The position numbers and the translations under genes were made by a program. From the IMG/VR virus record IMGVR_UViG_3300032327_000460, positions 8,422 to 72,421 of that record: a DNA stretch of 64,000 nt; one strand, 5' to 3'. Source of the DNA: a virus. Lineage: Duplodnaviria; Caudoviricetes. The notes under the pieces are model-generated. The model was given only the letters and a program-made list of their open reading frames with translations. It did no database searches and had not been told where the DNA came from. Shown here in pieces: positions 4,009 to 35,397 of this stretch (the stretch's first letter is position 1; every line of letters starts with the position of its first letter).

Positions 4009-4293
4009 ATGACTTTGCAAGAAATCAATCGTTCTATCATTGCGGGAACCTTTACCAACGAAGACCTGAATTCTATCGGGGACGCTATCAAGTTTGCCCG
4101 TGCCCAACTTGCTCAGAAGGCCAAGTTCACCTTGCGTACAGGTTCACAAGTGAAATTCACTAATTCACGATCTGGTCAGATTGTACTCGGTACGGTTGAA
4201 AAAGTCAATCGTAAATTTATCATCGTCCGTGAAAACGGCAAAGCATTTGGATGCAACTGGCGAGTTCCTGCTAGTATGTTGACAGTACTTTAA
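4009..4293 (+). CDS. hypothetical early protein
   Basis: Directly behind promoter cassette with AGGAG RBS. Confidence 0.7.
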   Translation: MTLQEINRSIIAGTFTNEDLNSIGDAIKFARAQLAQKAKFTLRTGSQVKFTNSRSGQIVLGTVEKVNRKFIIVRENGKAFGCNWRVPASMLTVL

Positions 4294-18579: not shown

Positions 18580-18912
18580 TCAGAATGGGGTAAAACTTGA
18601 TCCGCACCCGCATGTAGTTTGCGCTTGTGGGTTGTTTATTTTGAATCTTGAACCATTTAAATCATCAATATAATCAATTTCAGCATTACTTAAGTACTGC
18701 ATACTCATGCTATCAATCAAGACATTTGTAGTTCCTGATGGAATTTCCCAGTCATCTTCATTTTTTTCTTCATCAAAAGTGAATCCATATTCCATTCCGG
18801 AACAACCCCCACCTTGGACAAAAACTCTAACTCTAGTTTGATCGGATAGACCTTCGTCAGTCAACAATTCAGCCATTTTTAAGGCTGCTGATTCAGTTAT
18901 TTTTAAGTTCAT
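18580..18912 (-). CDS. erpA: A-type Fe-S carrier (ErpA/IscA/HesB family)
   Basis: [15 protein letters not shown] and TTCGCGSSF conserved Cys motifs; late box 18917-18923. Confidence 0.9.
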
Positions 18913-18956: not shown

Positions 18957-19172
18957 TTATCTACGCCGGGTAATACGGCCTTTACTTAAGTCATATGGAC
19001 TAAACTCAATTTCTACTGTGTCACCTAATAGAATTTTAATGTCATTTTTACGCATTCTACCAGATATATATCCATTGACAACTTGTCCACTGTGTAATGT
19101 AACTCTAAAGACGGCGTTAGGTAATACTTCTATTACCTTGCCGTCCATTTTAATACCTTCTTCTTTAGCCAT
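18957..19172 (-). CDS. infA: translation initiation factor IF-1
   Basis: [24 protein letters not shown]...[34 protein letters not shown]. Confidence 0.95.
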
Positions 19173-20837: not shown

Positions 20838-21374
20838 TTATATCACAATTGGCATAATAAGCCAAATGCCCTGGGTCAATAGTATTGTTCCAAAAATGCT
20901 AACGCCAATACTTCCCCAAAACATGCGTTTATCTACAGCCAAAATACTAGCAGATAATAATACAATAGCTAACTGAAATGCCATTGCAGCAAAAGTCAAC
21001 CATGGAGTGTGCTTTTTAGCCTCATCTCGTTCTGCTTCAATTTTTAATGCTTTAGCCATTAATTCTTTTTTACCCTCGCCCTTAACTGGATCGCTCTCAT
21101 ATCGTTCAATTTTAGCTTTTAGTTGTTCTTTACGACTTGGATCTTTGGCATCTTCAAGTTGTCCCTCAGCAATACTTTGCTTGATACTTTTAGCTTGATA
21201 GAAATTCCATGTGTCATTTGCTTTAATTGTGTTGTTTAATATTTTGCTACTGAATCCATTGGCCATATATGTTGTAATTGCTAACAATAATGCAATAACT
21301 GTGATGACCCACCCTGCTCTATCTTTAAGTTGTGCTTCACGCTCACTGCGTGATAATGGTTTAACTTCTGACAT
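20838..21374 (-). CDS. DUF4337-family membrane protein
   Basis: ANDTWNFYQAKSIKQ and FQLAIVLLSASIL; TATAAATA at 21394-21401. Confidence 0.75.
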   Translation of the reverse strand: MSEVKPLSRSEREAQLKDRAGWVITVIALLLAITTYMANGFSSKILNNTIKANDTWNFYQAKSIKQSIAEGQLEDAKDPSRKEQLKAKIERYESDPVKGEGKKELMAKALKIEAERDEAKKHTPWLTFAAMAFQLAIVLLSASILAVDKRMFWGSIGVSIFGTILLTQGIWLIMPIVI

Positions 21375-21388
21375 AATTCTATCTCCTT

Positions 21389-22084
21389 CTAATTATTTAT
21401 ATTAAACTCTTTAATTGCTGCCTTTGCCAAACTGTCTATGCTGTTAACTAATGGAATATTTTTATAATGCGTTTCTTTAACTGCTAAAGGTAATTCGGTA
21501 CAACCCAGTACCACAGCATTGACTCCCCATTTTATTAATCTTTCTATTACAATTATTAAAAGATCATGTGCGTCTTCAATATTATTGACCTTGATCAAAT
21601 CAATTGCCGGTTGCACAAGGGTGTCCATTTCATGTGTGTTGGGAGTTACACATCTCCATCCTTTACCACCTAAATAATGTTGATATAGTCCCAAACTCAT
21701 TGTGGCCTTTGTGCCTAGTATGCCTATAGTACCATGGTGTATGTTCAGTGATTTTAATTCTGTTGCAACGCTGTCAACAATGTGTGTTATCGGTACTCCA
21801 AACTGACTCATTCTATCATACCAAAAGTGTGCTGTATTACATGGAATTACAATATGATCGCACCCTGCGTCTTTTAATCCCAGTATACCCTGTTTGAGTT
21901 TTTCCCATGGCAAATCATCACGGTTTATTAAACTGGTACTACGATCGGGTACAGTAGGGTCGCCCCAGATAACTACTGGAATGTGTTCTTGGTCACAACT
22001 TGCGGGTGTTTGTTCTACTAGGCGCTTATAAAATTCAGCAGTTGCTGCTGGGCCCATGCCGCCAAGTACCCCTAACTTTTTCAT
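21389..22084 (-). CDS. aspartate/glutamate racemase family (RacX/YgeA-like) amino-acid racemase
   Basis: LGVLGGMGPAAT, IPCNTAH and LGCTELP: both catalytic Cys present. Confidence 0.9.
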   Translation of the reverse strand: MKKLGVLGGMGPAATAEFYKRLVEQTPASCDQEHIPVVIWGDPTVPDRSTSLINRDDLPWEKLKQGILGLKDAGCDHIVIPCNTAHFWYDRMSQFGVPITHIVDSVATELKSLNIHHGTIGILGTKATMSLGLYQHYLGGKGWRCVTPNTHEMDTLVQPAIDLIKVNNIEDAHDLLIIVIERLIKWGVNAVVLGCTELPLAVKETHYKNIPLVNSIDSLAKAAIKEFNINN

Positions 22085-22683
22085 TTTTTAAATAATAAAC
22101 TAGAAGCAATAACCATAGCAGTTTGTGCAGCCTCTACATCTTCGGGTTTTTCTTTCCAACCTATACTAATTTGTCCAATGAATACACCGGGCTCTGCTGG
22201 AACACTGATACGACACATGTAGTTTACTCCATGTTCTTTATATACAAAACCTATAAGACTTTGCGGTTTAGTATATGGACTACAAGGTATCTTACCAGAC
22301 ATCAAACCAATCACATCGTTATTGTTATCATAGTTTTTACTAAACAATCCAACATCTAATCCGTCATTTCTTTTATCTCTTCCACCACTGCGAGTAGATA
22401 AGTAAACTACCTTGCGTGTGTTGATCAGTGTATTAACTTCTAAAAACGCAACCATCTCAGCATCAGTATTCTTTAATAAGAAGTTTAATGCTTCTTCATA
22501 ATTGCCATTCATCTTAGGCAATGCTTGTTGAGCACGATAACTTGCCATAAATGCATCTTTTTCACTATAAACTATCCAACCACCAAAGCCCAAAATACAA
22601 AGAAACACAACAGTGAATAGACGAAATGGACTAGATCCAATCCAGTTTAATAAACCAAAGAGAAAATCTTTAATCTTGTCCAT
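22081..22683 (-). CDS. T4 gpT-like holin (single TM plus periplasmic GAF-like domain)
   Basis: 200 aa from ATG 22683; DFLFGLLN / one TM / DAEMVAF / GVNYMCRISV...IGQISIGW...ASSLL aligns by eye with recalled T4 T (DILFGVLD / EADFSAV / EINYMYSCPY...AGTITMYW...AARIL). Confidence 0.6.
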   Translation of the reverse strand: MDKIKDFLFGLLNWIGSSPFRLFTVVFLCILGFGGWIVYSEKDAFMASYRAQQALPKMNGNYEEALNFLLKNTDAEMVAFLEVNTLINTRKVVYLSTRSGGRDKRNDGLDVGLFSKNYDNNNDVIGLMSGKIPCSPYTKPQSLIGFVYKEHGVNYMCRISVPAEPGVFIGQISIGWKEKPEDVEAAQTAMVIASSLLFKK

Positions 22684-23944
22684 TTTTTTGTTCTTTCTCA
22701 CATACAAATGCTGTTACTGCTACATTGCCATGTACATGACTTGCTGTACGAATCATGTCCATTAATGGATCAACTGCAATCAACAACACTAATACTGCTT
22801 CGCTTGGGAGTTTTAATAAATCACAAACAACTGCTACTGTAGCAACAGTAAGAATACCTGTTGTGCCTGCGCTAGCTAAACCAGCTAAGATACTACCAAA
22901 CAGTACAACTAATAATCCTGCAACACCTAAAGGGGTGTCATAGATGTTAGCAATGAATACTGTAGCGATAGCATAATACACAATACTACCAATACGGTTA
23001 ACCGTGAAACTTAGTGGAACTGTCAATTCAACTGCGTCTTTATTGAATTTTAATTTTTGTAGTGCTTCTTGAGCATATGGAATACAAGCAAGGCTGCTTC
23101 GTGAACTAACAGCAACAATCAATGTTTCTTTAGTTTCACGGATAACTGTAGATAAACTTAATCCACTACGCATCCAAATTACAGCAGTACCTGTTGCGAT
23201 GACTAGGAATCCACCAATTGCTTGTTGCATTACAAAGTCAAACATAGTCATAAAAATTCCTACACCAACTTTACCTACCTGTGCAGAAATCATTGCTAAC
23301 AATGCTATTGGTAAGAAGTAATTTAAGAACTTGAAAATACTGATACTGGCCTGTTGAACACTTTTTAACACTTCAACTAACATTTTTTGACCATCTGTTT
23401 TCAAGTGACCAAGGGCAACACCAAAGATTAAACAGAAGATAACAATCTTTAAACTTTCACCATTGTTTAATGTATTGAAAATATTTTCAGGAATAAACTT
23501 CTCAGCCATTTTACCAGCACTAACTGGGGCGGCTGTTGGCATCGGCTCTTTAAGAGTGATGTTTAAATCTGTGCCACTGTCTTTGTCATTAATTAGTACA
23601 CCTAACTGTGTTTTTTTCTCCGGTGTCATTTCAGTGCCAGTAACCATAACTGTACCAACACCAATGACTGCGGCAATAAACATACTACTTACAAAACCAA
23701 TGATGATTCTACGAATTAATGTTTGACTACCCTCTTTTTGTAATAATCCAATGATACCTACTAGGATAGTTGCTAACAAGAATGGTAGTACAACTACTTT
23801 AAGTAAACTAATATAGACGCTACCTAAACTTTCAAAGTTTAAACTAAACTCCGGTAAGTAAACTCCACTGAGAATACCTACAACGATTGATCCTAAAATA
23901 GTCCAGGGACTAACTAAAAAACTTTTTAAATGTGCGATTGTCAT
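22670..23944 (-). CDS. dicarboxylate/amino acid:cation symporter (DAACS, GltP-like)
   Basis: Multi-TM; SRSSLACIP (HP1), VPLSFTVNRIGS, LIAVDPLMDMIRTASHVHGN. Confidence 0.9.
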   Translation of the reverse strand: MTIAHLKSFLVSPWTILGSIVVGILSGVYLPEFSLNFESLGSVYISLLKVVVLPFLLATILVGIIGLLQKEGSQTLIRRIIIGFVSSMFIAAVIGVGTVMVTGTEMTPEKKTQLGVLINDKDSGTDLNITLKEPMPTAAPVSAGKMAEKFIPENIFNTLNNGESLKIVIFCLIFGVALGHLKTDGQKMLVEVLKSVQQASISIFKFLNYFLPIALLAMISAQVGKVGVGIFMTMFDFVMQQAIGGFLVIATGTAVIWMRSGLSLSTVIRETKETLIVAVSSRSSLACIPYAQEALQKLKFNKDAVELTVPLSFTVNRIGSIVYYAIATVFIANIYDTPLGVAGLLVVLFGSILAGLASAGTTGILTVATVAVVCDLLKLPSEAVLVLLIAVDPLMDMIRTASHVHGNVAVTAFVCEKEQKNGQD

Positions 23945-23953
23945 GGTTAGTCC

Positions 23954-24772
23954 TTACTTCTTTTCTGCTTTGTAACGATCCATTAACTTTTTAGTGTCAA
24001 TGTTGCTGTATTCATTTTTAATAACATAATTAACAACGCTTAACAGTTGAATCGACTTTGGATTGACTGCTACTGCAATATTGTCTACGCTATCACTGAT
24101 TGTAATTGTCTTAGTGCTAATTGCGGCATCTGGTTTTTCAAAACTAATTTTCTTAATTTCAAATTCATCACGATACGCGGCAGCAATATCTCCGCGGGTA
24201 ACTTTATCAATGATTGTGTCCCATTTGTCTTCAGGAAGAAATATAGCATTAGGAAAGTTAATACGGGCAAATGTATCGTAACTAGAATTACGAATAAAAC
24301 TTATTTTACCATTAAACTCTCTTATAACTTGATATACTTCGCGACCTTGACTATTTTGACTTAACCATAGTCGGTTAACAATCAAACTTTGTCTAAGTTT
24401 GACATAAGGGTCGCTGAATCTAACAACTTGTAATCTAGGACCAGTAACAGATAATTTACTAACTGCAATGTCTGCACGACCATCACGAACTTGTTCTACA
24501 ACTTCGGCAAAACTTTCCGCATCTCGTCTAAATTGTACAGGAACTCCAAGTAATACACCAATTCGTCGGGCAATTTCAACGTCAAGACCACGGATATCAT
24601 CTTCCTCTCCGCTGTAGAAGGGAGGACTATCTTTTTTGGTCATTGCTACAACAAGAACATTGTTTTTCTTGATTAGAGCAATATCAGAGGGTAGGGGTAC
24701 CGTAGAGGTTGGTAATTGTGCGTTAGCAACCGAGGTCAACAGTACAAAAAATAATAGTAGTAGTTTTTTCAT
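23954..24772 (-). CDS. periplasmic amino-acid binding protein (SBP family 3)
   Basis: Signal peptide; GLDVEIARRIG, VRDGRADIAVS, RLQVVRFSDPY; TATAAATA at 24780-24787. Confidence 0.85.
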   Translation of the reverse strand: MKKLLLLFFVLLTSVANAQLPTSTVPLPSDIALIKKNNVLVVAMTKKDSPPFYSGEEDDIRGLDVEIARRIGVLLGVPVQFRRDAESFAEVVEQVRDGRADIAVSKLSVTGPRLQVVRFSDPYVKLRQSLIVNRLWLSQNSQGREVYQVIREFNGKISFIRNSSYDTFARINFPNAIFLPEDKWDTIIDKVTRGDIAAAYRDEFEIKKISFEKPDAAISTKTITISDSVDNIAVAVNPKSIQLLSVVNYVIKNEYSNIDTKKLMDRYKAEKK

Positions 24773-24834
24773 AGTATTGTATTTATACTATTATTTAAAT
24801 AGCATAGTTACAATACTGTTACATTTACCCAAAT

Positions 24835-25455
24835 TTACTTGTTGGCCAGTGGATTATCTATGGCTTTTTGTATTTTGTTATCAACTTCTTTCTTTAATGT
24901 TTCTACTTCACGGTTGATTTCTCTACGGGCCGATGTAAATTCACTGTTAATCTCTTTGCGTGTTGTTTCCATATCCTTACGAATTTGATTGGCTTCGTTT
25001 CTCGCTCTTTCCAAATCTTCACGAATTGCCTTACGCATGTCACGCATTTCTTGCTCAGTTTCACGCTGTGCAGATTTAACACTACGCTCAACTTGCTCGG
25101 TCACAGACTCATTACGGCGTAAGTCGTTTTTTAAATCCGTTTTGATATCACGGGTGTAGTCGCTAGTTTTTGCACTATTTTCTTCGATAACTGCTAGTCG
25201 TTTGTCGAATCCACTTAGGTCCGGAGCACTATAATCGGCAATCTTTTTCTTCATGCTTTGATAATCTTTGTATACTTCAAACGCACCATACAATCCACCT
25301 AGTGTAGATGATACGATTGTAGCAGCCACCATTAGTTTGGCAGGTGTAAATTCATAGCCACCAATACTGATAACAGTATCTTTGCTAGCATACTTCTTCA
25401 TAGCCGCTTCTGCTTCGTCAATCTTTGCGTTGACATCTTTAATTTGTTCACTCAT
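24835..25455 (-). CDS. membrane-anchored coiled-coil protein
   Basis: One hydrophobic segment then long charged heptad region. Confidence 0.6.
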   Translation of the reverse strand: MSEQIKDVNAKIDEAEAAMKKYASKDTVISIGGYEFTPAKLMVAATIVSSTLGGLYGAFEVYKDYQSMKKKIADYSAPDLSGFDKRLAVIEENSAKTSDYTRDIKTDLKNDLRRNESVTEQVERSVKSAQRETEQEMRDMRKAIREDLERARNEANQIRKDMETTRKEINSEFTSARREINREVETLKKEVDNKIQKAIDNPLANK

Positions 25456-25466
25456 TTTTTTTCTCC

Positions 25467-27833
25467 TTATTTGTATTGGCTGTTAACCATTTCATTGTGT
25501 TTAGCATCGCTGCCACCTGTCAATCCTCTAAGTAATCTAACATTATCAACCGTGCGTTGATTCTTATAAACTTCTTTAGGTTCGTAAAAAGTTGTATCTC
25601 TTAATGTAAACGAATATGCTGTAAATCCTACTGGTTGTATTGCCATACCAGCAATGTCTACTTTACCTGCCAATTCGTTTGGTTGCACCTCTCGTTTAAC
25701 TGTTTCTGTTCTTTGTTCTATATTAGATTGTGGTAATTCCATGCGTTGTTGAATTAGATCATTCAATGGATTACCAGTTCTTCCTTGACTATTGAAAGTA
25801 GATATAGACAATTGTGTGCTTTCGGAGTCTGAATGTCTCGATTCTAATCTTGATTGATATACTGTAGTTGGTGGTGTAGGTGTTATGTTACTAGTATTAG
25901 TAGTACTGAACGGGTTATAACTGAATGAACTACGATTAATAGACAATCCCGTACCAACACTAGTTATCTGCTGAGTTTCTATTTGAGTAGTTGTTAGTGG
26001 GTTTAATAATGTGACCACAGATGGTTGAGAATCCTGTTGGTGTGATAGTGTTGTGTATGTTGTTTGTTGATTCTGTACTACACCATTGAATGTTTGAGTT
26101 TGTGTCTGCTGTGCCTGCTGCGTAGCCTGCATTGATTGTGTTGTACTTGTTTGAACAGATGCCTGTGTTGTTTGATTAGAAAACTGTGCGGCAGCAGTAG
26201 CACTGTTCGCACTCATGTCTTGATTCATTGTAATTGCGGCATTACTTGCAGCCTGTGAACTTTGTTGAATATTTTCCAAGGCCTTGGCTGCGTTTTGTAC
26301 TGCTGTTGCTTGTATTGCTTTGTCTTTTTCCTGTGCTGCTCTTGCTATGCTCAATGCCGCACCCGGTGTCATCTTTGCCCCATCGTTAGCATTACCGGGC
26401 CCTGATTGTGATTGTTGCGGTCCATTGCCGCCGAATGGACCATTACCGGGTCCGTCCCCACCGGCCATTGGGCCTGTACGATCCTGTTGTTGTGGTCCAC
26501 TACCCGCCATTGGTGCGTTATCTGGGCGATTGCCTTCGCCACCGGGCCCTGGACCTTCACCTCTTGCAGGGCCGTTGCCCCCAAAATTTACGTCCGGCGG
26601 ACCATTTGGAGCACTGGCATTTGACACCGTTGAACCCAACAACAATGTTTTGGCATAAGCAACGGCATAGCCTTTGCAAGTTGGGCTGCTCAATGGATCA
26701 ACTGCACAAGGATCAGCCGTGTAAATGATATTAGCCCATGCTCCTGTAATCGAAGATCCTGTACCAGATGCCACACCCTGAACTCTACCTGTGCCTAATA
26801 ATGTCTGATTCATACTTGAAGGCAACAGATACTTTTCACTGACTGAGCCACTAGTGCCTTCTTGCGTAAAACTATAATTCTTTTGATGTATTACTTGATT
26901 ACTGCTATTAGTAAAAGTAGCGGCAGCACTGACATAAGCAGGAGTGTTCATGGTCCAACTGCAAGAACCATCTTGATTCCAAGCAGTACAGCCATAGAAT
27001 CCTTGTCCCACTGAGTAATTGAATCCATAGTTGAATCCATGTACCATTGCTCCGGATCCTGCAAGACCCAATGCTGTATTGACAGCAAAGACTTGATTTA
27101 ATGATCCACCGCCCACTGAGGAGTTTAATAGATTTTTAGAATTGATAACATCTCCAAATCCAGCACAAGTAGAACTATATGCAGGGTTACTGGCGCAAGG
27201 ATCAACTCTATACTTTAAAGAAAAGTTAACATTGATAATTTCAGGACCATACGGACCTGCCCAGTAATTATTATCACGACCAACAAAGCCTACTTGTGCA
27301 TTGCTATAGTTTGTAGCCGCTGTCGGGTTGGCAAATGTTTCACTAAAGTTAAATTGTGTCCAGTTGTATTTTTGATTAGTCTGACTTGTATAATCATAAT
27401 TTGCCGCTAATCCACCGCCGGCATTGTAAAACTTTACATAAGCACCCAAGTAGTCTTGTCTACCGTCATCCCATCCATTACCATTCTTGGCCTGAAAACC
27501 AAAGTTAAATCCACTCAGTTGTACTCCAGTACCACCTGCTGCCAACGCTTTGTTTATATTGACAATTTGATGTAGGTCCACTTGACCGTAACTAAAGTTA
27601 ATAGCACCGTTAGTTTGTACGTTGGGATACGGGCCGCAATTGCCAGGGGTGTTGCCACCAAAACAACCCAGTTGATTAACATAAACGCCGTTATTCCAGT
27701 TGCTGGTCGTACCTGTAGGTGTACCAGAGAAATTAATTAAATTCCCTGTAGTACTGTCTACTTGTGCATTAGAATAGTTTGAACACAAGAGCACCAAGCA
27801 AAGCGCCCAGGCCCACTTTTTTATATGTGTCAT
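25467..27833 (-). CDS. large exported protein with Cys pairs and Gln/Pro/Gly-rich linker
   Basis: Signal peptide; DPCASNPAYSSTC and DPCAVDPLSSPTC; low-complexity middle. Confidence 0.65.
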   Translation of the reverse strand: MTHIKKWAWALCLVLLCSNYSNAQVDSTTGNLINFSGTPTGTTSNWNNGVYVNQLGCFGGNTPGNCGPYPNVQTNGAINFSYGQVDLHQIVNINKALAAGGTGVQLSGFNFGFQAKNGNGWDDGRQDYLGAYVKFYNAGGGLAANYDYTSQTNQKYNWTQFNFSETFANPTAATNYSNAQVGFVGRDNNYWAGPYGPEIINVNFSLKYRVDPCASNPAYSSTCAGFGDVINSKNLLNSSVGGGSLNQVFAVNTALGLAGSGAMVHGFNYGFNYSVGQGFYGCTAWNQDGSCSWTMNTPAYVSAAATFTNSSNQVIHQKNYSFTQEGTSGSVSEKYLLPSSMNQTLLGTGRVQGVASGTGSSITGAWANIIYTADPCAVDPLSSPTCKGYAVAYAKTLLLGSTVSNASAPNGPPDVNFGGNGPARGEGPGPGGEGNRPDNAPMAGSGPQQQDRTGPMAGGDGPGNGPFGGNGPQQSQSGPGNANDGAKMTPGAALSIARAAQEKDKAIQATAVQNAAKALENIQQSSQAASNAAITMNQDMSANSATAAAQFSNQTTQASVQTSTTQSMQATQQAQQTQTQTFNGVVQNQQTTYTTLSHQQDSQPSVVTLLNPLTTTQIETQQITSVGTGLSINRSSFSYNPFSTTNTSNITPTPPTTVYQSRLESRHSDSESTQLSISTFNSQGRTGNPLNDLIQQRMELPQSNIEQRTETVKREVQPNELAGKVDIAGMAIQPVGFTAYSFTLRDTTFYEPKEVYKNQRTVDNVRLLRGLTGGSDAKHNEMVNSQYK

Positions 27834-29028: not shown

Positions 29029-29163
29029 CTTTTTTCCTTGTTTTTATTATTTTTGAGTAAAAGATGTTTTTACTATTGATATTTATCAAAAAATGGGTTA
29101 ATAAAACTATGTAGATAACTATCTGCTAATAATGATTAGTGGTATTGCCACTATAAATATCAG

Positions 29164-29490
29164 ATGAAACAAACTATTATTATATTATTAATGGCGCTAG
29201 CATCTCCATTAATACATTCCAAAGAAACTGTGGTATCCGAAGAGATTGTGACTTTTGAAGCACCTTGCTATACTACAACTGAGTTGTTTAGTTCTTTAAA
29301 AGAATTGTACAAAGAATCACCTATTATAATAGGAAAAGCGACTGATGAAGCAGGATCCACGATGAGTTTTTGGATTAATCCAATAAAACTTAGTTGGACT
29401 ATTATTGCTACCAAGGGTAATTTAAGCTGTGTTATTGGATCCGGCACACATTTTAAAATTATGCCAAATAAAAAATCTTTAAGCCTATAA
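29164..29490 (+). CDS. exported hypothetical protein
   Basis: Signal peptide; TATAAATA at 29152-29159. Confidence 0.6.
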   Translation: MKQTIIILLMALASPLIHSKETVVSEEIVTFEAPCYTTTELFSSLKELYKESPIIIGKATDEAGSTMSFWINPIKLSWTIIATKGNLSCVIGSGTHFKIMPNKKSLSL

Positions 29491-29512
29491 TAGGCAATGA
29501 TTGGATAGAAGA

Positions 29513-30247
29513 ATGCTTAGAATTTTTATATTATCATGTCTCTTGCACTTTGGAGCACATGCACAAGTAGTACCACTTACCGCACAATCTTGGTTAGTAG
29601 CCGATAGTAACGGTAAAATATTAGATGGTAATAAAACTACCGATATTCGCAGTATAGCAAGTATTACTAAACTAATGACAGTTATGGTTGTGTTAGATGC
29701 AGAACAAAATCTAGATGAGGTTATTTCTACTAAACTTTATAATAAAAAATTATCTAGAAGGGAACTGATTAGCCTTGCTATAATCAAATCAGATAATCAA
29801 GCCGCAACTATTTTATGTCAAAAATATACAACAGGACTAAGCGGATGCATTCATGCAATGAATGACAAAGCCAAGTCGCTGGAAATGTATGATACAAAAT
29901 ATCTTGAACCCACTGGATTAAGTGTGTTTAATGTTAGTACCGCAGAAGATTTAGTTAAACTTGTAATTGCCGCAAGCAAGTATCAAATTATAAATGAAGA
30001 TAGTAATAAAGATATTATCAAAATGGCAATTAATAAAAAGAAAACTGCACTATTTCACAACACTAATAGTTTAGTTGGACATGGTCATAGATTTATTGTT
30101 AGTAAAACCGGATGGATCAATAAGAGCGGTGGCTGTATCGTAATGATGTTAACCACTGAACGTGGTATACGAACAGTGATTTTATTGGGTAGCAAGAATA
30201 CAAAGACTCGTATTCCTGAAGCTAAAATGATTGCACTAGCTTATTAA
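29513..30247 (+). CDS. peptidase S11 D-Ala-D-Ala carboxy/endopeptidase (PBP7-like)
   Basis: Signal peptide; SITK (SxxK), SDN (SxN) and KTG motifs. Confidence 0.9.
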   Translation: MLRIFILSCLLHFGAHAQVVPLTAQSWLVADSNGKILDGNKTTDIRSIASITKLMTVMVVLDAEQNLDEVISTKLYNKKLSRRELISLAIIKSDNQAATILCQKYTTGLSGCIHAMNDKAKSLEMYDTKYLEPTGLSVFNVSTAEDLVKLVIAASKYQIINEDSNKDIIKMAINKKKTALFHNTNSLVGHGHRFIVSKTGWINKSGGCIVMMLTTERGIRTVILLGSKNTKTRIPEAKMIALAY

Positions 30248-34923: not shown

Positions 34924-35397
34924 TTAAGCCACCTCTGCTTCTAATTCTTTAGCAAATGCTTCTGCCAACAAAACAAACTCACCACCATGATCGGACACAA
35001 ACCATGTAGCAACACCATTTACATTTCGCAAAATGTAATCGTATTCTTCAGATTGACCATTGGCTCTGTAGTCTGCAAAGTCCTTGAAGTAATTTGCATC
35101 AGATTGACCTTCACCGCGGTCACGACCATAGAATGTACACATGTTACCATACAGTTTGTAGAATTCATCCGAGGTCATACCTTCAACATCATAGTGACTA
35201 AAGGGATGCTTTGTACCAATTGTTGTACGCAAACTAGACAAACCACCGAGGTCAATAAGTTCACGCAAGATGAAGGGGTTAGAATAGTTCTCAAGCAGGA
35301 TCTTGCCGTTGTGAACCAAGTAACCATCCCAGTGACAGTACACTTGACCAATAGTACCATCAGCGAATTCCAGAGCGATTGTAGAACGAGTTGCCAT
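34924..35397 (-). CDS. conserved phage hypothetical early protein
   Basis: MATRS...VYCHWDGY; behind promoter cassette. Confidence 0.65.
   Translation of the reverse strand: MATRSTIALEFADGTIGQVYCHWDGYLVHNGKILLENYSNPFILRELIDLGGLSSLRTTIGTKHPFSHYDVEGMTSDEFYKLYGNMCTFYGRDRGEGQSDANYFKDFADYRANGQSEEYDYILRNVNGVATWFVSDHGGEFVLLAEAFAKELEAEVA

Follow-up and report, generated by a model that had tools for sequence, protein, structure and literature searches.

A predicted, highly diverged T-type holin gene nested in a putative amino-acid uptake and racemase operon of a giant T4-like phage

What is a holin-like gene doing between genes for the uptake and the racemisation of an amino acid? The question is raised by four genes on the minus strand of the stretch of DNA analysed here, which comprises 64,000 nucleotides (nt), is called the window below and forms part of a 72.4-kb IMG/VR virus record (IMGVR_UViG_3300032327_000460) with an estimated completeness of 21% (CheckV). 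In order of transcription they encode an exported solute-binding protein, a carrier of the DAACS/SDF (glutamate transporter) family, a small membrane protein referred to here as gene 3, and a racemase. We consider it probable, if by no means assured, that the locus is a composite module in which an uptake and racemisation set of bacterial type shares a promoter with the t-type holin gene of the phage.

The four open reading frames that the initial annotation had placed here are all present, and three of them can be assigned by Pfam. The first (23954-24772) encodes a periplasmic family-3 solute-binding protein of 272 amino acids (SBP_bac_3, PF00497, E-value 8e-18) and is followed after 9 nt by the gene for the carrier (22670-23944), a protein of 424 amino acids that belongs to an unusual subfamily of the DAACS/SDF carriers (SDF, 1e-66). 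Gene 3 (22081-22683) encodes a protein of 200 amino acids with a single transmembrane (TM) segment and has no match in Pfam or NCBIfam, and the last gene (21389-22084) encodes a racemase of 231 amino acids, which is of the two-cysteine type that is independent of pyridoxal phosphate and resembles aspartate and cysteate racemases (Asp_Glu_race, 7e-40). Direct reading of the junctions bears out the overlaps that had been described between these genes: the ATG of gene 3 (22683) lies 14 nt within the carrier gene, whose stop codon ends at 22670, and the stop codon of gene 3 overlaps the start codon of the racemase gene as ATGA. A perfect copy of the box TATAAATA stands upstream of the group at 24780-24787, as had been claimed, and ends 7 nt before the ATG of the binding-protein gene. 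Together with the conservation described below, this supports the view of the four genes as a single, closely packed unit that is preceded by a conserved box of the T4 late type. In the literature searched we found no description of an operon composed of a solute-binding protein, a DAACS carrier, a holin-T-like protein and a racemase, and to this extent the claim that such an operon is undescribed holds.

The identity of gene 3 is central to the question. Its product is predicted to have an amphipathic cytoplasmic N-terminus, one TM helix (residues ~17-39) and a periplasmic GAF domain (residues 58-200), an arrangement that fits the topology of class III holins with their short cytoplasmic N-terminus, single TM segment and large periplasmic C-terminal GAF-like domain. 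By eye the protein had been thought to resemble holin T of bacteriophage T4. This resemblance is real in the sequences but reaches significance only at the level of profiles and structure. In a BLASTP comparison gene 3 and T4 T align with an E-value of 0.13 over 46 residues, which is not significant; a PDB sequence search with gene 3 returns chance matches only; and the match to the Pfam family Phage_holin_T (PF11031) that might have been expected is missing from gene 3 and three phage relatives at E-values up to 10, whereas T4 T itself, as a positive control, scores 1.5e-118. An exhaustive search for relatives of gene 3 yielded 106 cluster representatives at 50% identity, mostly of about 200 amino acids, and none of the 64 family members that were aligned matches PF11031 at E-values up to 1 or any other model in NCBIfam or Pfam. 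When, however, this 64-sequence family is compared by hhalign with a T family of 28 sequences, the two align over 191 columns with a probability of 95.3% and an E-value of 2.1e-8, from end to end (residues 2-197 of gene 3 with 6-214 of T4 T), while the same family aligned with the single T4 T sequence gives a probability of only 2%. The motifs common to both proteins are D[FI]LFG[LV]L at the N-terminus, NYM followed by a cysteine, and G-x-I-x3-W. An alignment-based structural model of gene 3 adopts a GAF fold whose top three matches in the PDB are T4 T, as the resemblance had led one to expect; a model computed by AlphaFold2 from the single sequence was unusable (mean predicted confidence, pLDDT, of 48.8) and was discarded in its favour. 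Of the two conserved cysteines of the family, C134 shows no exception among the 64 sequences and C157 is present in 90% or more of them. In the motif alignment C157 corresponds to C175 of T4 T, which presumably forms the periplasmic disulfide with C207 there, and the second cysteine of gene 3, C134, lies at a position different from that of the T4 partner. On these comparisons gene 3 is a remote homologue of holin T, and we conclude that it is probably the very diverged t-type gene of this lineage and a predicted holin.

The genomic surroundings of its relatives are in keeping with such a role. In Edwardsiella phage GF-2 a family member (1e-51 to the family profile) lies between the antiterminator gene Q and an endolysin-Rz pair, and in Edno5 a member is found directly 5' of the endolysin gene. 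Further members are located at the end of the lysozyme region in a Mu-like contig, behind a LysC-like gene, and, in a Manatee Spring phage, two genes away from lysozyme. Moreover, the complete genome of Cronobacter phage S13 (Straboviridae) contains a member of the gene-3 family (5e-44) and lacks PF11031, T4 contains PF11031 and no match to the gene-3 family, and the giant relatives of the window phage have the gene-3 family only; each of T4, S13, GF-2 and three giant relatives has one of the two families and not the other.

To which kind of phage, then, does the cassette belong? Among the close relatives of the window are complete records of 332-349 kb and one of 525 kb. The complete relatives encode a T4-type major capsid protein (Pfam Gp23, ~1e-99), and three of them contain a weak match to gp55, the late sigma factor of T4 (E-values of 7e-7 to 4e-5, 30-34% identity over ~80 residues). 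As gp23 and the weak but consistent gp55-like match occur together in these relatives, the window derives from a giant T4-like phage. It is a freshwater phage that is represented in metagenomes only, and a megablast search of cultured phages with the four-gene cassette gave no matches. A related contig of 148 kb carries a gene for a Gram-negative porin (Porin_4/Porin_1; L005:12324-13229) shortly 3' of the cassette, with genes for a glycosyltransferase and a metallophosphatase also on the downstream side, which suggests that the host is Gram-negative and that the neighbouring genes are concerned with the cell envelope.

The box in front of the cassette had to be separated from background, since TATAAATA occurs seven times in the window as against 9.0 expected and is thus not above chance in number. 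That it is mere noise was rejected on the grounds of position and conservation. Within 40 nt upstream of the 97 gene starts in the window the core ATAAATA is found 13 times in the sense and never in the antisense orientation, and a sense count of 13 was reached by none of 2000 composition-matched shuffles. Furthermore, [T/C]ATAAATA is found at -15 to -8 (or -13) before the binding-protein gene in most of the related loci, while the sequence further upstream is unrelated. Because of this strand-specific placement, and because its position is kept despite unrelated upstream flanks, we regard the box as a real element that belongs to the cassette. By analogy with the late promoters and the biology of T4, and in view of the gp55-like match and of gp23 in the complete relatives, we infer that it is a late promoter. 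No Shine-Dalgarno sequence is found in the 7 nt between the box and the ATG of the binding-protein gene; if the box works like a T4 late promoter, this implies that the mRNA would be leaderless or have a very short leader. Pfam searches with the large genes behind ATAAATA boxes did not identify structural proteins, and late timing gained no support by that route.

If the four genes form a unit, they should also stay together elsewhere, and co-occurrence in related phages is indeed borne out by a synteny survey of IMG/VR. Scans anchored on gene 3 and on the carrier retrieved 48 loci (61-93% identity) and 37 loci, respectively. In every related giant-phage locus that has sufficient flanking sequence (~60 loci), the binding-protein gene is followed by carrier, gene 3 and racemase in this order. 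The cassette persists as a unit while its flanks vary between the relatives, and the gap between the binding-protein and the carrier gene usually amounts to 9-15 nt. Its members are not equally firmly joined. The divergence from the window copy is mutually correlated among the binding protein, the carrier and gene 3 (rho of 0.44-0.56), that of the racemase is uncorrelated, and the racemase junction consists of ATGA, of a 55-nt spacer or of an insertion of 1-2.2 kb; in two loci (L056 and L034) the racemase gene does not adjoin the cassette at all. The racemase is thus the loosest member of the set. In the relatives with the 55-nt gap (e.g. L016:6600-6662) the spacer encodes a hydrophobic micropeptide of 20 amino acids, MRLPTVIAVGILIIIVFFIL, whose ATG overlaps the stop codon of gene 3 and whose stop codon overlaps the ATG of the racemase gene. 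This peptide, possibly a small partner of the holin-like protein in the membrane, is absent from the window because gene 3 and the racemase gene overlap directly there.

Where might the uptake genes have come from, and what would they transport? The binding protein carries a signal peptide (MKKLLLLFFVLLTSVANA, with Q as the following residue), and its best solved relatives are the binding proteins of amino-acid ABC (ATP-binding cassette) transporters (4i62, 1.7e-14). All of 18 phage copies of the protein have Arg113 and Asp202, which, judging from the structure alignment, we take to correspond to the HisJ-type residues that hold the α-carboxylate and α-amino groups of the ligand. Genes for an ABC permease or ATPase were not seen in the examined neighbourhood of the binding-protein gene, although the protein may use an ABC system of the host. 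The SDF match of the carrier (PF00375, 1.2e-66) spans residues 14-414, and the protein aligns over its full length with aspartate transporters (9bgz, 8e-28) and with EAAT3. Its signature motifs are altered in a particular way, namely from NMDGT to NRIGS and from N-V-x-G-D to H-V-H-G-N, while the substrate motif D-x-x-R-T is retained (as DMIRT), and these changes are fixed or nearly identical across 46 phage loci. In carriers of the GltPh type it is through the D-x-x-R-T motif that the substrate is bound by its amino group and its side-chain acid, and NMDGT together with N-x-x-x-D in TM8 (GltPh numbering) provides the canonical Na+-site residues. The phage carrier has hence lost the canonical Na+-site residues and retained the Asp/Arg/Thr triad for the substrate.

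A similar pair exists in bacteria. One alphaproteobacterial contig (64% GC) encodes, one behind the other, relatives of the phage binding protein (40% identity) and carrier (35%), and a racemase gene (45%) is oriented towards this pair; the genome of this contig, searched as a whole, contains no relative of gene 3. Among 401 alphaproteobacterial genomes a relative of the binding protein is present in 20, and in nine of these 20 loci it is followed by an SDF gene in the same direction, with a divergent arrangement in one more (loci including L145-L160 and L120). No gene-3 relative was found in the bacterial loci for binding protein and carrier within the examined flanks of 1.5-6 kb. The SDF genes located behind a binding-protein gene in bacteria encode nine distinct carriers, six of which likewise have Arg for Met in NMDGT together with D-x-x-R-(T/S); these six also lack the Na+-site Asp. 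Conversely, gene 3 occurs without its neighbours: the phage contig L046 contains a 70%-identical copy beside an aldolase gene and a T4-type terminase gene, with binding protein, carrier and racemase absent. As bacteria carry the pair without gene 3, we infer that binding protein and carrier are a bacterial set of cellular origin that has been captured by the phage. Judged by sequence, the two may constitute a binding-protein-dependent DAACS system. A pairing of DAACS/SDF carriers with family-3 binding proteins was not found described in the literature searched; the use of binding proteins by elevator-type carriers as such was called an emerging theme in a 2025 paper (PMC12344293).

The racemase was correctly recognised as having both catalytic cysteines, as Cys82 and Cys195 are invariant among its relatives. 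It scores 218 bits against the NCBIfam model for the cysteate racemase CuyB (NF052483, cut-off 190) and 1e-48 against TIGR00035 (aspartate racemase), and matches aspartate racemases in the PDB at 1e-43 to 1e-39. A racemase-anchored scan of bacterial genomes placed its closest cellular relatives, which are 45-54% identical, in the Acetobacteraceae and Rhodospirillales. Two loci of the closest bacterial racemases show no conserved cuy context; the neighbours there are citrate synthase, a phosphoenolpyruvate-mutase-like gene and an aldo-keto reductase. Candidate substrates suggested by these matches are Asp, Glu or a cysteate-like compound.

Taken together, we propose that binding protein, carrier and racemase were acquired by the phage as an uptake set of bacterial type, and that the following sequence of events takes place. 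The box would fire late in infection and give one transcript shared by the four genes, from which an exported binding protein, a DAACS carrier, a diverged holin-T homologue and a cytoplasmic two-cysteine racemase would be made in this order. The binding protein would capture an acidic amino acid (Asp, Glu or a cysteate-like one) and the carrier would import it. The racemase would then interconvert its D and L forms, and therefore either enantiomer present in the environment could, as we propose, feed the metabolism of the phage. Gene 3 would act like T4 holin T, in that its product would accumulate in the inner membrane in an N-in/C-out orientation with the GAF domain in the periplasm and would trigger permeabilisation of the membrane, as its homology, fold and topology and the position of its relatives suggest. 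The nesting of gene 3 within the set is most likely to result from a single insertion beside the t gene and from shared late expression; a signalling link as the reason for it is less likely.

Several observations weigh against this composite-module reading. A late promoter is an odd choice of timing for the scavenging of nutrients, and neither the phage record nor three complete relatives yielded a CuyA-type lyase (PALP). The window has no endolysin or spanin gene adjoining gene 3, nor was a T4-type lysozyme found in the record of the window or in the three complete relatives, so that in this lineage the holin role of gene 3 is assigned by homology only. Moreover, the carrier and gene-3 frames overlap by 14-53 nt in every readable phage locus but one, the most distant, and gene 3 lies directly 3' of the carrier gene in all 33 carrier-anchored loci with enough flank; mere hitch-hiking would not call for so close a coupling. 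Finally, one relative of 524,565 bp (G003, IMGVR_UViG_3300027749_002876) holds two diverged copies of the whole cassette, at 274-287 kb (L014) and 81-93 kb (L045), whose gene-3 products are 89% and 70% identical to that of the window. Behind the second copy lie the NT5C gene and the small genes that also follow in the window, and only one gp23 gene was found in the record; the double cassette may be a real duplication or the product of a chimeric assembly.

But would the tight linkage not rather indicate that the uptake proteins inform the holin? The initial annotation had envisaged that the phage makes a D-amino acid, releases it at lysis and captures or senses it in neighbouring infected cells so as to set holin timing. 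Such small-molecule control of lysis could be brought about by the binding protein, its ligand or a D-amino acid made by the racemase acting on the GAF domain of the holin; the binding protein might even take the part of the antiholin RI, and the amino acid released by neighbours would delay or advance lysis. GAF domains often bind small molecules, the GAF domain of gene 3 and the binding protein share one compartment, and the GAF-like domain of T4 T is the one that receives RI, as the titles of PDB entries 6PSK, 6PX4 and 6PXE indicate. Binding protein, carrier and gene 3 are, in addition, always together in this phage lineage, translationally coupled and co-diverging, and it is the cassette as a unit that outlasts its changing flanks. 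All of these loci, however, come from one phage lineage, and the linkage of the three genes may for this reason be a single inherited event. The parts are also separable: the bacterial uptake pair works without any T-like protein, relatives of gene 3 reside in lysis cassettes without uptake genes and the copy in L046 stands alone, and the least firmly attached member is the racemase, without which the D-amino-acid idea cannot stand. We therefore regard control of lysis timing as improbable, and the specific version in which the liganded binding protein or the amino acid engages the holin GAF domain as RI engages T4 T, so that an acidic D- or L-amino acid from lysed neighbours would set the time of lysis, as decidedly doubtful. 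What stands of the earlier proposal is thus the distant holin-T homologue with its periplasmic GAF domain, the packed unit behind the box and the co-occurrence in phages, whereas the notion that a D-amino acid is made, released, sensed or used to set holin timing is unsupported.

Two other explanations rank lower than signalling. The racemase might supply a D-amino acid (D-Asp or D-Glu-like) that alters the synthesis or cross-linking of peptidoglycan late in infection and, along with an exported D,D-peptidase of the S11 type encoded nearby, readies the wall for holin-triggered lysis or blocks superinfection. Non-canonical D-amino acids do modulate peptidoglycan, the Peptidase_S11 gene (29501-30247) is only 5 kb away in a region rich in exported and membrane proteins, and a T4-type lysozyme was not found in the complete relatives. 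Against this, the S11 gene is on the opposite strand and outside the conserved unit, a D-amino-acid ligase and a periplasmic racemase are absent, the racemase is cytoplasmic and of the Asp/cysteate type rather than MurI, and a binding protein with an inward-type carrier suits uptake more than wall editing; this envelope-directed role is accordingly an unlikely one. Alternatively, gene 3 may no longer be a holin, and its GAF domain may dock the binding protein or gate the carrier while the true holin is encoded elsewhere. The almost invariant overlap of carrier and gene 3 would be well accounted for in this way, and other binding-protein-dependent elevator carriers do need extra bridging domains (TAXI-GltS, PMC12344293). 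Then again, neither the examined bacterial binding-protein/carrier loci nor the one whole genome contain a gene-3 relative, such relatives occupy holin slots in other phages, L046 has gene 3 and no carrier, and no canonical T (PF11031) was found in the complete relatives that could be the alternative t gene. An accessory subunit is in our view the most improbable of these explanations, and the composite module remains the one that we prefer.

How does this module compare with known systems? Gene 3 and T4 T are of similar length (200 versus 218 amino acids) and have the same architecture of an N-in single TM segment and a periplasmic GAF domain. They differ in location, as T4 t lies after the tail-fibre genes whereas gene 3 is nested in a transporter and racemase operon, and in their cysteine pairs, of which only C157 of gene 3 is aligned to a disulfide cysteine of T4 T (C175). 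Phages are known to carry auxiliary or moron genes, such as the pstS binding-protein gene of cyanophages and the stx genes that precede the lysis cassette of Stx phages. These resemble the present case in that genes derived from a host are placed on a phage promoter or beside a lysis gene; here, in contrast, the holin gene is surrounded by a full set of genes for binding protein, carrier and racemase, and reading frames overlap. In the cysteate locus of Bilophila wadsworthia, which comprises an SDF carrier, the racemase CuyB, the D-cysteate sulfo-lyase CuyA and RidA (PMC11193023), an SDF-family carrier likewise adjoins a two-cysteine racemase of PF01177, and the combination of an SDF carrier with a CuyB-type racemase is therefore an already known bacterial pairing. 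That locus is without the binding protein and the holin-T relative of the phage set, for which in turn no CuyA was found. Finally, the TRAP, TTT and TAXI-GltS systems (the latter from Bordetella pertussis, PMC12344293) resemble the phage pair in the coupling of a binding-protein gene to a secondary carrier of the elevator type and in the absence of ABC components from the vicinity, but the phage carrier is a DAACS/SDF member and the phage binding protein belongs to family 3.

Some further features of the window deserve mention. Directly after the racemase gene follows a gene for a DUF4337 membrane protein (20838-21374, minus strand; 1.6e-32) with an ATAAATA box of its own (21394-21401) 19 nt upstream, and DUF4337 relatives are found on the opposite side of the cassette in some loci (L012, L016, L023). 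On the other side of the cassette in the window, again on the minus strand, lie genes for a 206-amino-acid protein with a TM segment and a long coiled coil (24835-25455), which has the general shape of an i-spanin and no lipoprotein partner in sight, and for an exported protein of 788 amino acids rich in Gly, Pro and Gln (25467-27833); many relatives have both of them close to the cassette, though neither side nor orientation is constant. The exported Peptidase_S11 protein mentioned above is of the D-Ala-D-Ala carboxypeptidase type (plus strand, 1.4e-34) and is preceded by a small exported open reading frame (29164-29490) behind a copy of TATAAATA at 29152-29159. Since a T4-type lysozyme was not found in the complete relatives, it may be a wall-acting enzyme of lysis or remodelling. 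Downstream of the cassette the minus strand encodes a 71-amino-acid homologue of the translation initiation factor IF-1 (18957-19172), recognised by eye, and an IscA-type Fe-S assembly protein (18580-18912; Pfam Fe-S_biosyn, 3.9e-19), the latter with CATAAATA 5 nt before its ATG. A repeated σ70-like cassette (TGGGTATATAATAGAATCTTAAACAGT...AAAGGACT) precedes many small genes, with starts at 4009 and 4548 on the plus and at 35397, 37167, 37634, 37908 and 58010 on the minus strand; judging from the sequence, these copies seem to be early promoters of one family, each with an extended -10 element and a fixed leader that carries a Shine-Dalgarno sequence.

Our analysis extends the holin-T family beyond the reach of Pfam to lambdoid and Mu-like small phages, to some Straboviridae and to giant freshwater phages. 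All members of the gene-3 family are annotated as hypothetical proteins, and each is now a holin candidate for its genome. The carrier subfamily of these phages is, in addition, a candidate for a further class of binding-protein-dependent elevator transporters. If the link between uptake and holin is not functional, the cassette is a clear example of metabolic genes that ride on a late lysis transcript. If it is functional, it would represent a novel means by which phages sense the chemistry of their environment and, should the signalling reading be true, a small-molecule form of lysis inhibition in giant freshwater phages.

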